From positions 62,001-119,449 of the forward strand of contig CAUYUJ010000023.1 in assembly GCA_963575745.1 (NCBI GenBank): a DNA stretch of 57,449 nt, written 5' to 3'. Each line of letters starts with the position of its first letter. Within the stretch, counting starts at the first letter, position 1. Shown here piece after piece: positions 31,502-57,334 of the stretch. Source of the stretch: Prorocentrum cordatum. Taxonomy: Eukaryota. Made by a program: the position numbers and the translations under genes. The notes beneath the pieces were generated by a model. That model was not told the origin of the DNA. It saw nothing but the letters and a program-made list of their open reading frames with translations, and did not search any database.

Positions 31502-31611
31502 GACACGACAGCACTCATGTCGACCCTGACCGTCTACGGCCAAGCGACGTTCGAGAGCTCGCTCTCCGTGGCAGATTCTGCTCACCTCGGGTACAAGCTC
31601 TCCGTAGCGAG
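31502..31611 (+). CDS. Host 12-aa-repeat protein, exon A (DTTALMSTLTVYGQATFESSLSVADSAHLGYKLSVA)
   Basis: CAG|G acceptor, GC3-rich codons, xxL(G/S)xxLSVxxx periodicity and AG|GA donor. Not called by the ORF track. Confidence 0.85.
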
Positions 31612-32477
31612 GATGTCGCATTTGCCGGGTGGGGCCAAGGGGCGCAAAATGAGAAGATGAGAGGGAGAGCGGGACGGAGGGAGCTAGGGGGACAGGAGGG
31701 AAGGGAAGCGAAGGGAAGAGAAGAGAAGGGAGAGGGAGGGAAGGGACGGGAGGGAGGGAGGGAAGGGAGGGGAAGGAGTGGGAGACGGAGAGGAAGGGAA
31801 GGGAGTGCGAGGCGGTTCGCTATCGGGGAGGGGGGGCAGGCAGCGAGAAGGACGAGGACGGGGCGGCGGAGGAGGCCCGCAGAGGGAAGGCGGGGCCGGC
31901 TTGTGGAGGCCAGTCCGCGGCGCATGGCCTGTGGCCCGAAGGAGCGCGGCACCAACGCCAGCAGCTAGAGGTTCTGAAAGGGTTCGCACTCCCTGGCGCT
32001 CACGACCCGATCGGCCCTCCAGGGGCTGTCTTGGGCCGTCTTGCGGGGCCCCGTGGGGCCGTCTTGGGGCCTTCTTGGGCCGTCTCGGGGCCGTCTGGGG
32101 ACGAGCTTGGGGGCCACTTGGGCCAGCGTGTTCGCTGTCAAAACGTAAATGCGAATGTGCTGATTGGGGGCCCGCTCGGCGATCCTCAGGGGGCGCCTTT
32201 GGGCTGTCTTGAGGGCCTCGTGGGCCATCTTGAAGCCATCTTGGATCGTCGTGGGCCGTCTTGACGCCCTCTTCGACTGTCTTGGCGCTCTGTCTGGGCC
32301 CTGTTGGGCTGCGATGGGGCTTTTTGAGGGCTCTGGAGGCCCTGGGGTTGCGTTGACAAGATCGTTCCCCCCTCCCTCCTGGCCCTGCCCTCCGCCCCTC
32401 TTAGAATGGCGTTTTGGACCCCATGAGAAGGGGGAAAGAAGGAGGGGGACCGTCAAATGTCTCACATAAGAGAAGTG

Positions 32478-33512
32478 GATGAGGCTGAGGCTGAGGCTGA
32501 GGATGAGGATGAGGATGAGGATGAGGATGACGATGATGTTGATGTTGTTGATGATGATGCTCCTGTTGATGATGATGATGATGATGATGCTGCTGCTGAT
32601 GATGATGATGATGATGATGATGATGATGATGATGATGCATATGATGATAATGTTGATGATGATGCTGATGCTACTGATGATGGTGATGCTGCTGATGGTG
32701 ACGATGATGATGCTGATGATGATGATGAAGATGACTATCGAGATGATGATGATGATGTTGCTTATGATGATGATGATGACGATGATGATGCTGATGACGA
32801 TGATGATGAGGAGGACGATGCTGCTGCTGATGATGATGCTGCTGCTGATGATGATGATGATGATAAGGATGATTCTGCTGCTGATGATGATGAATGTGCT
32901 GATGATGATGCTGATGCTGCTGATTATGACGCTGATGATGCTGGTGATGAGGATGCTACTGAAGACGATGATGCTGCTGATGATGCTGATGATGCTGATG
33001 CTGATGCTGATGCTGATACTGCTGATGCTGATGCTGATGCTGCTGATGCTGATGCTGTTGATGTTGATGATGATGATGATGATGATGATGATGATGATGA
33101 TGATGATGATGATGCTGATAATGATGATGCTGCTGATGATGATGATGGTGATCATGCTGATGATGATGCTGCTGATGATGATGCTGACAATGATACTGAT
33201 GATGCTGCTGCTGCTGATGATGATGATGATTCTGATGGTGATGATGCTGATGATGATGAATCTGCTGCTGATGATGATGCTGACGATGATGATGAGGATG
33301 ATGATGGTGGTGAGGTTGTTGATGATGATGCTGATTATGATGATGATGCTGATGATGATGATGCTGATGATGATGATGATGATGATGCTTATGATGATGA
33401 TGATGATGATGATGATGATGCTGATGATGATGATGATGATGATGATGCTGATGATACTTATGCAACTGATGATGTTGTTCATGATGATTGTGAGTATGAT
33501 GCTGCTGCTGAT
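32478..33512. repeat. Degenerate (GAT)n array
   Basis: Seen directly. Confidence 0.95.
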
Positions 33513-33770
33513 TATCATTGTTGTTTTTTTACTTTCATCATCATATATAGTTGCTAGTATTACAACTTCATAACATTTATGATAAAGGATTCATGTTTTT
33601 TGTTGGTCTTGCTGATATTGTTGTTGCTGTTGTTGTGGTAGTTGTTGTTGTAGTCGTCGTTGTCGTTGTCGTCGTCGTCGTCGTCGTCGTCGTCGTGGTG
33701 GTTGTTGTCGTAGTAGTAGTAGTAGTAGTTGTTGTTGTTGTTGTGGTTGTTGTTGTTGTTGTTGTTGTTG

Positions 33771-34531
33771 AACATTATTTATTCTAAAGAATAATTATTG
33801 TTGGGCCCCCTGGTGCGCGCCCCCCCTGCGCCGCCTAGGCCGCAGCTACATTTTCATCATTTTCGTGAGGAAGCCTCAGAAAAGAGGGTGTGTACAGGAT
33901 CCGGTTGTTTTGTTGTAATCCGCTTTCCCTTGCAAAAAACAATAGAAAATGACATTTCTTGTTCTAATATAATCAAATTTCAAGAATCCCTTGCAAAAAA
34001 TAAGGTAAAGTGGACATTCGCGCGCGCAAGACGAAATCCTTCCAAAACCTTAGTGTTCGCAGCGATTTTAACATAAAAACATCAAAAAACCAATGGTTTT
34101 TCAACAAAAAATTGTCAAAATCTCATCCCGCGCGCTCTTGCGGATTCGTAGGAAACCCAACACTTTTTAAACATTTCTGTCAAACGGGCTTTTGCGAGCA
34201 ACTTTTTCGAACTTCTGCGACAACGGTTGCGCACCTGCCAGGGCCATCATCCCTGTCAAATAATACCATGCGGGACACATTCGTTTTTTCTTCGCGCGCG
34301 CACGCCGTCGTCGTCGGCCGCGGGGCCCTGAATAGTAGCCACGGTCGTCCGCATGCCACGAAGTGAAGTGTCCGAACGTCATAGGGCGGGAAGCTGGGTG
34401 TGGGTGGTGGCGAAGAGTCGTTTGGAAATTTGGTAGAGCTTGAACCGGCCCCCCCACAAAGTGGGGGTATTGCCCGCCTCCTATGAAAACCCTGGCACTG
34501 GTGAGAACGGAGTGTCCCCACGTGCTAGTAA
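33771..34531. mobile_element. (GTT)n-flanked SINE-like element, copy 2
   Basis: Almost identical to 49275-50035. Confidence 0.85.
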
Positions 34532-55566: not shown

Positions 55567-55754
55567 CATTATAATCTGAAAGGGCTTCGCCCCCTTCTGC
55601 CCGGCCCCTCTCTCGGAGAATGGGCCATGGAAGAGCGACGTCATGAGTCTTTGGCTTCACCGTGAAGAAGCGTGGGACCTTCATGCGAAGACGATGGGTA
55701 ATTGGCAAGACGAATGGAGATTGCGAGTCTATTGTTGTACTCGCTGTTGTAGGA

Positions 55755-56391
55755 ATTTCAGAAATGTTGCACAGTCCCTTTGTTTTTGGACACTGACCCC
55801 GCCGATCTGCATGAGGGGTGCCAGCAAATTTCAGAAATGTAGCAAATCTTACATGTTTTTGGACCCTGACCCCGCCGATCTGCGTGAGGGGTGCTACCGA
55901 ATGTCAGAAATGTGGCAAATCTCATATGTTTTTGGACCCTGACCCCGCCGATCTGCGTGAGGGGTGCCAGCAAATTTCAGAAATGTGGCAACTCCCATAT
56001 GTTTTTGGACCCTGACCCCGCCGATCTGCGTGAGGGGTGTTACAAAATTTGAGAAATGTGGCAAATCCAAGGTGTTTTTGCAACCTGACCCCGCCGATCT
56101 GCATGAGGGGTGCCAGCAAATTTTAGAAATGTTGCAAATCCCATATGTTTTTGGCCCTTACCCCGCCGATCTGCGTGAGGGGTGCTAGCAAATTTCAGAA
56201 ATGTGGCCAATCCCATGTGCTTTTGGACCCTGACCCCGCCGATCTGCGTGAGGAGTGTTCAGTGTGGCAAATCCCATGTGGTTTTGGTCCCTGACCGCGC
56301 CGATCTGCGTGAGGGGTGCCACCGAATTTCAGACATGTGGCAAATCCTTTGTGTTTTTGGACCCTGACCCCGCCGATCTGCGTGAGGGGTG
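55755..56391. repeat. 73-bp tandem minisatellite, ~9 copies
   Basis: GCCGATCTGC recurs at 55801, 55874, 55947, 56020 and onward; one unit is shortened. Confidence 0.95.
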
Positions 56392-57308
56392 TAGACTTTT
56401 ACCCACCCCAGCAGTTCAGAGCACACGCTCAGGGCGTCGTAAAAATACGCGTTTTGGGCCTCCCCCCTCGCGCGGTCCATCAACAAGGAACAGTAAGCAG
56501 CAAGAAGTCAACAGGGAACAGTAAGCAGCAAGAAGCATGACTGTAACAGTGGAAACTGGAAGCTGCAACTGGTACAGGAAGCCGCGAAGCTTCGGCCTAC
56601 AGCCTGGTGGCCCCACAGGGGGGGCGGCGGATTATGCCCTGCTGGCCAGGCAAGGAGGGCGTACACCCCGATTCTGGGCCCAGGACGGGCCTGGCCAGGA
56701 CCTGTGTCGGTGTGCGGTTGGTGCCCTCCTGCAGGGGGTGGGGCTGCTTTTCCCCCCTTGCCCATCTCGCCCCCCCGCGTTCTCCTCGTCCTCCTCCTCG
56801 TTCTCGTCCTCCTCCTCCTCCTCCTCCTCCTCGCCCGCCTATCCGCTTGAGTGCACCGTGCCACGTTGGCGTCTCCCGAGGCGTCGTCATTGCTCGACCA
56901 AAGCACGCTTTTGTTGCACAGACTTTGTCGGCCCCGAGGGAGGGCCGAGGGAGGCCCCGAGGGAGGGCAGGGACTTTGTCGGCCCCGAGGGAGCAGGCTG
57001 CGCACCATGCTGCGCTGGATGGGATGGGGGGCGAAGTCAGTCCGATCATGGCACGGATCCGCCTCGCCCCCATTTCGCTTCACCAACCCTCCCTCTCCCC
57101 CCTCCGCCCTTCACCGCTTCCCTTCACCAACCTTCCCTCTCCCCCCTCCGCTTTTTACCAAATCCCTTCAACAACCCTCCCTTTACCAGCCCTGCCCCTC
57201 CCTCCACCCTGCATCAGCCCTTCCTCCTCCTCCCCGGCGGGCCGCCGCGGGCGCAAACCATAACGCGCATCCCCAGGCAGCTCCCCGCCAGCTCCCGACC
57301 CTCTTCAG

Positions 57309-57334
57309 TTGAACTCGCCGACTCCCTCGCAGAC
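57309..57334 (+). CDS. Possible exon F of the 12-aa-repeat protein ((V)ELADSLA..)
   Basis: CAG acceptor; G from exon E plus TT gives Val and continues the register. It is short and the donor is unclear. Confidence 0.4.

Follow-up and report, generated by a model that had tools for sequence, protein, structure and literature searches.

A candidate Peptidase_S74 trimeric-fiber-family gene split across 21 kb of Prorocentrum cordatum nuclear DNA

The dinoflagellate Prorocentrum cordatum carries, in a 57,449-nt stretch of contig CAUYUJ010000023.1 (assembly GCA_963575745.1, positions 62,001 to 119,449 of the forward strand; hereafter the window), five short segments on the plus strand between 31502 and 52666 whose translations read as copies of one 12-residue unit. 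This raises the question of whether the segments are exons of a single gene and, if so, what kind of protein that gene encodes. An earlier reading of the same letters, which we call the original prediction, had proposed a hidden host gene for a beta-solenoid or fiber-like structural protein and had added a possible sixth exon at 57309-57334. We conclude, with a probability of about 0.65, that the five segments are the first five coding exons of a nuclear gene belonging to a dinoflagellate family of trimeric fibers with a C-terminal Peptidase_S74 domain (PF13884, chaperone of endosialidase; S74 below). The window would hold the shaft-coding 5′ part of the gene, which is real and probably intact.

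The shared reading frame of the five segments

When exons 1 to 5 are joined, they give a single frame of 134 codons composed of 12-residue units with the consensus xRLGSxLSVxxx. Joining all six segments of the original prediction yields 143 stop-free codons in one frame, comprising eleven complete units and one partial unit, and the other two frames contain 5 and 2 stops. We recovered the segment coordinates, the joined peptide and the intron lengths exactly as first described (Table 1; the fifth intron of that description is 4642 nt), along with the dinucleotides at the proposed donors (GA, GC, GA, GT and GC) and the AG acceptors.

The window is GC-rich and contains 172 stop-free frames of at least 150 residues, so an open frame by itself means nothing here. 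The six frames were cut into 1536 stop-to-stop pieces and a repeat model was trained without one exon and without the units straddling it. Each of exons 1 to 5, when left out, was the best non-training piece of the 1536 (E-values in Table 1), and no other piece of the window, on either strand, was found at E < 1 under the repeat model. Exon 2 is the weakest of the five supported exons. With a model built from relatives only, exons 3, 1 and 4 were the top three of the 1536 pieces. Additionally, the joined peptide of exons 1 to 5 scored 350 bits against the relatives, compared with 33 bits for the reversed peptide and no more than 14.7 bits for whole-sequence shuffles and 12.6 bits for within-unit shuffles (40 of each kind).

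Residues that are conserved between units are written with three to five synonymous codons; Leu at column 3 uses five, and Arg at column 2 uses both AGA and CGN. Between units, identity at codon positions 1, 2 and 3 is 0.44, 0.55 and 0.37, respectively, and the GC content at third positions is 0.75. The varied synonymous codons and the lowest identity at position 3 indicate that the repeat is kept at the protein level and is not a DNA satellite. The joined peptide also aligns with relatives that are contiguous proteins, in alignments of 100-137 residues that cross all junctions and are of the same length in both partners (for instance residues 5-141 with 7-143 of relative P0051, and 7-140 with 207-340 of relative P0018), indicating that no net insertion or deletion occurs across the junctions. 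Among S74-bearing relatives, the best whole-protein E-value against the joined peptide was 1e-41. Duplication of an exon-intron module was considered and ruled out, as the introns have only dispersed repeats and satellites in common.

At the 5′ end, the first ATG after an in-frame TAG is at 31517-31519, and unit 1 follows at once. The 386-residue relative P0016 has a complete N-terminus, and its residues 2-105 align with residues 3-106 of the joined peptide, that is, to ATG 31517. The repeats are entered at once in 13 of the 13 Met-start relatives shown, the latest after about 30 residues (P0040), and are not preceded by a hydrophobic leader. We therefore take exon 1 to be the first coding exon, and ATG 31517-31519 is most likely the translation start.

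Splice sites are weak evidence in this window because GT, GC, GA and AG dinucleotides are frequent. A register-keeping GT/GC/GA..AG pair was found within ±18 nt at 5/5 junctions; G is the last exon base at 5/5 donors and the first base after 4/6 acceptors. We scored all in-frame, stop-free donor/acceptor pairs within ±30 nt of each junction with a matrix made from relatives only. The originally predicted pair ranked first of 10 at junction 2 (2.2 vs −1.9 for the next pair), first of 32 at junction 3 (25.5 vs 4.6) and first of 16 at junction 4 (39.1 vs 30.8 for the alternative 47548/52584). The pair was second of 19 at junction 1 (8.8 vs 13.1 for the pair of a GT donor after 31628 and an exon 2 start at 39826) and second of 11 at junction 5 (7.4 vs 9.8), where all scores are low and the GC donor after 52666 is provisional. 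The GT pair at junction 1 sits 17 nt downstream of the GA pair; the data do not choose between these two options, whose protein products are of the same length and differ at six residues. The junctions first proposed are thus upheld at junctions 2, 3 and 4, ambiguous at junction 1 and unsupported at the sixth segment. That segment was not recovered when left out and its unit scores are −6.6 to −7.1 under the family matrices, and we no longer count it as an exon. A scan of 52667-57449 for a better exon 6 gave as its best family-like 12-mers only stretches in simple repeats or out of phase with exon 5.

We also observed (AGG)n/(GGA)n arrays on the coding strand (Table 1). Three of them stop 36, 125 and 40 nt before the acceptors of exons 1, 3 and 5, respectively, and another starts about 85 nt after the sixth segment. 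This proximity may be chance, given about 11 such arrays in 26 kb.

A model of the linker and S74 domain made from 48 relatives found no match in the window (best E 0.23 on the minus strand and 4.1 on the plus strand), suggesting that the gene runs past the 3′ end of the window. Because the introns span 2.5-8 kb and 21 kb of DNA yields only 134 codons, any remaining part of the gene would have to lie far beyond 57449, and this is where we would place its S74 end.

The repeat family and its C-terminal domain

A profile of the five window exons (alignment A1) searched against 1.84 billion cluster representatives found 267 proteins at E ≤ 1e-3, of which 55 reached E ≤ 1e-10 and 2 reached E ≤ 1e-30. 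A profile search of the joined peptide had been proposed as a check on the original prediction, and it returned relatives with the same 12-residue repeat: in 43 of the first 45 matches, the L-S/T-V motif recurs most often at a spacing of 12. Of the 150 matches listed, 40 were scanned against Pfam (the top 43 minus three short fragments), and S74 lies near the C-terminus in 24 of these 40. Outcomes among the 40 also included Bactofilin only (3 proteins), both domains (1), an unrelated weak match (1) and nothing (12). Bactofilin (PF04519) passed the whole-protein cut-off in 3/40 relatives with no single stretch passing, and P0026 fell below it (21.8 vs 27.9 bits). When relative P0016 was used as the query, 194 of 8000 scored candidates reached E ≤ 1e-10, and PF13884 is present in 114 of the 120 listed. 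In direct searches with the window exons, Pfam returned 0 families at E ≤ 10 and a word-index protein search with exon 3 returned 13 candidates among longer proteins, none at E ≤ 1, and none of near length either.

Ten listed rows of the P0016 search carry source names, namely eight organisms and two unlabeled MMETSP transcripts. All eight organism-labeled relatives are dinoflagellates and come from transcriptomes: Alexandrium monilatum, A. catenella, Biecheleria cincta, 'Dinoflagellata sp. MGD', Pfiesteria piscicida, Heterocapsa triquetra, Apocalathium hangoei and Kryptoperidinium foliaceum. Three taxids were checked and all belong to Dinophyceae. Passages of PMC12584245 report for Amphidinium carterae a median exon of 74 nt, many short exons between long introns, and GC and GA donors, and parts of PMC7789003 tabulate high shares of GC|GA-AG introns in other dinoflagellates. 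The labeled relatives and these descriptions bear out the proposal of a host gene. The gene structure is ordinary for dinoflagellates, and the window locus is an ordinary, incomplete member of the family. Names attached to family members are automatic only, UniRef giving 'Peptidase S74 domain-containing protein' and the Joint Genome Institute (JGI) giving LpxA/LpxD-like names, the latter because of the hexapeptide-like pattern.

The combination of repeat array and S74 was then compared among sequence collections. For JGI metagenome contigs, 292/598 candidate stretches were related and 80 loci were kept, 67 of which match from the repeat array through S74. For IMG/VR viral contigs, 125/601 candidate stretches were related and 80 loci were kept, none with the repeat array, all matches beginning at query residue 189 or later. 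Using one genome per prokaryote species, 185/307 candidate stretches were related and 78 loci were kept, none with the repeat array and none matching before residue 118. The S74 domain alone is common to phages, giant viruses and bacteria. Because the array with S74 occurs in the metagenome loci and in none of the IMG/VR or prokaryote loci, the pairing of the repeat shaft with S74 looks to be peculiar to dinoflagellates. A tblastn search with the repeat-only relative P0010 against 50,697 phage records (low-complexity filter on) found no match. The original prediction had likened the 12-residue repeat to the shaft repeats of viral fiber proteins, and this likeness did not hold among the IMG/VR loci or the phage records; the viral link lies in the C-terminal chaperone of the relatives, a domain not found in the window. 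The ESM Atlas returned phage hypothetical proteins at 0.93-0.94, a match of low recognition value that we treat as a lead only.

The metagenome matches are on short mRNA-like contigs, each taken up almost wholly by one open reading frame of up to 1658 residues with an open 5′ end. No other Pfam domain was found above cut-off in these frames, apart from a marginal RRM_Nup35 in L027 (27.9 bits vs a cut-off of 24, with no single stretch passing). DinoSL, over at least 12 nt, was found in 0/70 metagenome loci, which is uninformative since 61/70 are open at the 5′ end. As a side observation, P0001 (3172 residues, on an 89-kb contig), the P0004 cluster, P0012 (2783 residues) and P0026 are very long proteins encoded on long genomic contigs; they mix 12- and 18-residue spacings of the motif and match Bactofilin, and P0012 also has S74. 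Such proteins may represent cousins of the shaft repeat from outside the dinoflagellates, in bacteria or viruses.

Full-length family members have tens to more than 100 units. Relatives L042 (1-4896) and L011 (1-4686) each contain more than 115 consecutive 12-residue units, and in both of them three unit types follow each other in fixed A-B-C order (A ends xDF, B LRSxx, C FGL), with no insertion or deletion over about 1380 residues, which is unusual regularity for a natural protein. The resulting 36-residue super-repeat has a spacing of 36 in 31/32 cases in L042 and 31/31 in L011. The array gives way to a linker of about 60 residues in which H, G and W are invariant, followed by Ser-Asp-x-x-x-Lys, the S74 core and a long C-terminal helix. 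S227, D228 and K232 are invariant in 20 relatives, and the Ser-to-Lys spacing is that of the catalytic dyads given in sections of PMC8326128 for endoNF (S911/K916) and MyRF (S587/K592).

Unit types in the window were assigned with matrices built from L042 and L011 only. Window units 8, 9, 10 and 11 type as B, C, A and B, with margins of 13, 17, 17 and 12 bits. As units 8 and 9 straddle junctions 3/4 and 4/5, this result indicates that exons 3, 4 and 5 would be adjacent in the mRNA with nothing missing between them. Units 1-3 type as C, A and B, and units 4-7 are generic.

Taken as a family member, the window gene would be read through five exons, separated by introns that are filled with satellites and transposons and have the GA, GC and GT donors usual in dinoflagellates. 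Translation from ATG 31517 would lead straight into the 12-residue array, with two short beta strands predicted per unit. The complete protein of the family would consist of the 36-residue A-B-C array, a short linker, the S74 chaperone, in which a Ser-Lys pair is invariant, and a C-terminal helix. On the model of phage endosialidase, the T5 tail fiber and MYRF, as treated in parts of PMC8326128, the C-terminal domain would gather three chains and nucleate folding of the upstream repeats into one three-chain beta fiber. Self-cleavage at the conserved serine, proposed from the same comparison, would then release this domain and leave a stable shaft of three chains. The family shows no evident signal peptide, so the fiber may be intracellular.

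Predicted fold, competing explanations and surrounding sequence

Sequence comparison with the PDB matched the C-terminal part of the relatives to 6f45 (E 9e-10), 8jov, 8hqz and 7dc3, the MyRF ICA domain (E 0.003), and gave for the repeat part weak LpxA/LpxD matches only (E 0.005-0.6). A model of three copies of P0008 residues 100-416 scored 0.76, a mark reached by 21/30 proteins solved as one-chain pairs and 0/23 solved as single chains, and the best of 3 controls scored 0.00. The trimer runs agreed in at least 89% of contacts, and the partner predicted local distance difference test (pLDDT) was at least 68. The confident interface covers the entire repeat stretch of the modeled chains, every residue from 100 to 171, together with the S74 core and the C-terminal helix. 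Participation of the whole repeat stretch fits three intertwined chains better than three separate solenoids. S74 trimers have already been solved, so the pass may rest on likeness to those. Monomer models were poor. The AlphaFold monomer of P0008 (pLDDT 56.6) has one 5-residue and one 3-residue strand per unit with a period of 12 and a long terminal helix, and a repeat-only model from 120 register-aligned 180-residue segments (pLDDT 34.0) is unusable. Monomer and trimer prediction had also been suggested as a check, and it came out divided: the trimer of a relative is clear of its controls and the monomers are of low confidence. In substance, the fiber-like beta protein of the original prediction is supported by the S74 ends of the relatives and by this trimer model.

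Several points weigh against reading the five segments as a working member of the fiber family. Splicing as drawn and expression are proposed from sequence; with respect to splice-site compatibility alone, an arbitrary register can be satisfied at all five junctions with p ~0.02. Junction 1 is ambiguous, leaving the GA donor of intron 1 uncertain. No credible sixth exon was found in 52667-57449, and an S74 exon is absent from the window, so that the C-terminal domain of this gene is assumed. One phase slip separates window runs 1-3 and 8-11, as also occurs in relatives, and units 1, 4, 6 and 7 score low (2.7-6.6 bits) against matrices taken from two very regular relatives. Neither the gene product nor a near-identical protein was found in a collection of 5.8 billion proteins. 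Finally, the monomer predictions are poor, and the trimer model is that of a relative and not of the window gene, with three copies being outside the calibration of the tool.

We considered whether the locus is a decaying relic, in which the exons derive from a family member but are no longer spliced or expressed and the introns were stretched by satellite and transposon growth. This is unlikely in our judgment, although it has a real claim. The missing protein, the several units far from the family consensus and the lack of exon 6 or an S74 exon in the last 4.8 kb would all fit decay, as would introns dominated by microsatellites, minisatellites and the dispersed 1.1-kb repeat. However, the 134 codons are stop-free over five separate pieces whose other joined frames are interrupted, frame- and register-keeping splice sites occur at all junctions, and both the codon-position pattern and the synonymous variation look as expected under selection on the protein. 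The start ATG is also intact with an in-frame stop upstream, and short exons with long introns are normal in dinoflagellates (as described in parts of PMC12584245).

A second alternative is that the repeats form a single-chain beta-solenoid, like those of bactofilins, hexapeptide or pentapeptide repeats, and not a three-chain fiber, in which case the window gene may lack an S74 end. The AlphaFold monomer of P0008 does fold the repeats as a solenoid, its best structural matches are pentapeptide-repeat proteins (for the repeat part, VIA-align gave 6fls_A with Z 12.1 and a root-mean-square deviation of 2.6 over 153 aligned residues, a lead only), Bactofilin matches occur in 4/40 relatives and 12/40 have no Pfam match, S74 included, and the weak LpxA/LpxD sequence matches and JGI names are of that kind. 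Against this, the monomer models are poor and a Foldseek search of the P0008 model against the PDB gave 0 matches at E ≤ 1e-3, S74 ends 114 of the 120 listed relatives and many of those without it are fragments, and the trimer interface includes every residue from 100 to 171 with controls at 0.00. The period of the window family is 12, and not the 5 residues (20 per coil) of pentapeptide repeats; the likeness is structural only. We consider the solenoid improbable. The last alternative, that these are chance open frames in GC-rich low-complexity DNA or an inserted fiber gene of a giant virus or polinton-like virus, is very improbable: the window has many long stop-free frames and many serine/leucine-rich simple repeats, and parts of PMC12220804 and PMC13659346 describe S74 fibers as common in such viruses of protists, but leave-one-out recovery and the shuffle controls exclude chance, the coding pieces are split by introns with dinoflagellate-type splice sites, the array is matched in 0/80 IMG/VR and 0/78 prokaryote loci, and the labeled relatives are from dinoflagellate transcriptomes.

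Upstream of the fiber-family gene the window contains a giant retroelement resembling a long interspersed nuclear element (LINE), with stop-free frames of 2365 and 1022 residues. In the 2365-residue frame an RNase_H match (575-722) lies N-terminal to a weak RVT_1 match (1440-1702), and there is also a C2H2 finger. Introns 1 and 4 and the region upstream of the gene each contain a copy of a dispersed repeat of about 1.1 kb, with 90-93% identity among these copies, and partial copies also occur. The satellites in the introns all have one strand orientation, and the units listed are, in the order of the positions in Table 1, 101 bp × 10.8, 73 bp × 8.9, (TGTA) × 303, (TGA) × 319 and (TTG)n over 1 kb. 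From 6000 to 57449 (about 50 kb) the plus strand has a lasting positive GC skew and negative AT skew, which extends across both the minus-strand LINE-like element and the plus-strand gene.

Table 1. Positions of the fiber-family gene segments and of other features within the 57,449-nt window
Feature	Position	Strand	Remarks
Upstream edge of exon 1	31466..31501	+	In-frame TAG 31466-31468; AG 31500-31501, a candidate acceptor, possibly for a spliced leader
Exon 1 (110 nt)	31502..31611	+	Units 1-3; left-out E 1.6e-4; alternative GT donor after 31628
Intron 1 (8197 nt)	31612..39808	+	GA..AG as read, or GT..AG with pair 31628/39826
Exon 2 (40 nt)	39809..39848	+	Unit 4; left-out E 0.13, yet first of non-training pieces
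Intron 2 (2537 nt)	39849..42385	+	GC..AG; sole register-keeping pair within ±18 nt
Exon 3 (119 nt)	42386..42504	+	Units 5-7 and start of unit 8; left-out E 4.4e-8
Intron 3 (4993 nt)	42505..47497	+	GA..AG; holds 101-bp minisatellite
Exon 4 (56 nt)	47498..47553	+	End of unit 8 (type B) and most of unit 9 (type C); left-out E 0.12
Intron 4 (5035 nt)	47554..52588	+	GT..AG; junction scoring first of 16
Exon 5 (78 nt)	52589..52666	+	Units 10 (type A) and 11 (type B); left-out E 9.9e-5
3′ region, presumably intron 5 and beyond	52667..57449	+	No S74-domain exon; exon 6 unsupported
(AGG)n/(GGA)n arrays	31013-31465, 42152-42260, 52332-52548, 57420-57449	+	Coding strand
LINE-like retroelement	5769-15901	−	Upstream of the gene
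Dispersed 1.1-kb repeat, copies	33597-34649, 49081-50151, 16449-17567		Intron 1, intron 4, upstream of the gene
Dispersed 1.1-kb repeat, partial copies	37139-37596, 38110-38451		
Intron satellites	45790-46893, 55754-56391, 54212-55422, 32498-33455, 48205-49274		
Tandem-repeat block (~3 kb)	26200-29075		
Assembly gap	29076-29175		100 N, within the tandem-repeat block

Relation to known fibers and meaning for dinoflagellates

The closest known systems are the phage ICA or Peptidase_S74 fibers and spikes, such as K1F endoNF, the T5 L-shaped tail fiber and long tail fiber tips (3gw6, 4uw8, 8hqz, 6f45). The relatives of the window gene share with them the C-terminal S74 domain, the Ser-x4-Lys pair, the C-terminal helix and the trimer model, and also the position of the chaperone directly behind a beta-repeat shaft, as set out in passages of PMC8326128. 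They differ in the shaft, because the 12-residue repeat and 36-residue super-repeat were not found in the phage or IMG/VR sequences searched, and in being cellular proteins of dinoflagellates from intron-rich genes with no receptor-binding or enzymatic head detected. The window itself has shaft exons only.

Among cellular eukaryotic proteins, the known case of an ICA/S74 domain is MYRF (myelin regulatory factor), which also has a triple-beta-helix stalk. Like the dinoflagellate family, it is the product of a eukaryotic host gene with a phage-type trimerizing, self-cleaving domain, and its structure 7dc3 matches the C-terminal part of the relatives. Unlike MYRF, the dinoflagellate proteins are almost wholly repeat shaft and lack further Pfam domains. 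Polinton-like viruses and giant viruses of protists, according to portions of PMC12220804 and PMC13659346, have long, modular fibers with a C-terminal chaperone of endosialidase, and in this respect they resemble the dinoflagellate proteins in a protist-associated setting. Those fibers carry laminin-G, collagen, adenovirus-fiber or baseplate modules on viral genomes, whereas the dinoflagellate family has the 12-residue shaft and spliceosomal introns, and the IMG/VR search gave no viral contig with the repeat. Solenoids such as LpxA/LpxD, bactofilin and pentapeptide-repeat proteins show a similar alternation of small and aliphatic residues in their beta strands, at a period divisible by 6. However, the dinoflagellate period is 12/36 and not 5, 6 or 18, the matches in relatives are below or near threshold, and the known solenoids are single-chain coils, as opposed to the three intertwined chains predicted in the trimer model of the relative.

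We found no published description of a dinoflagellate host S74 fiber family or of the 12/36 shaft in the endosialidase/Peptidase_S74 papers reached by our search, which did not extend to supplementary domain tables, which may list PF13884. S74-chaperoned fibers themselves are well known in phages; what appears to be new is the extremely regular 12/36-residue shaft together with S74 in a dinoflagellate-wide family.

Based on these comparisons, we tentatively suggest, as a proposal that is more doubtful than the assignment of the five exons, that dinoflagellates took the self-chaperoning, self-cleaving trimeric fiber module of phages and giant viruses into their nuclear genomes and expanded it to a multigene family of very long cellular fibers, with more than 115 exact units without an insertion or deletion in one transcript and no signal peptide. 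Such fibers might build a dinoflagellate-specific filament, for example in extrusomes, the cortex or the nucleus, not linked to any gene so far. The window would then show that genes of this kind are old residents split by typical introns.

The family occurs in transcriptomes of at least eight species across several orders, and the repeat register of its members can be used to stitch exons together in genomes where gene finders fail. If the proteins are cellular trimeric fibers, eukaryotes would, counting MYRF, have two independent cellular uses of the S74 module, and the fibers would be candidate building blocks of dinoflagellate-specific filaments.

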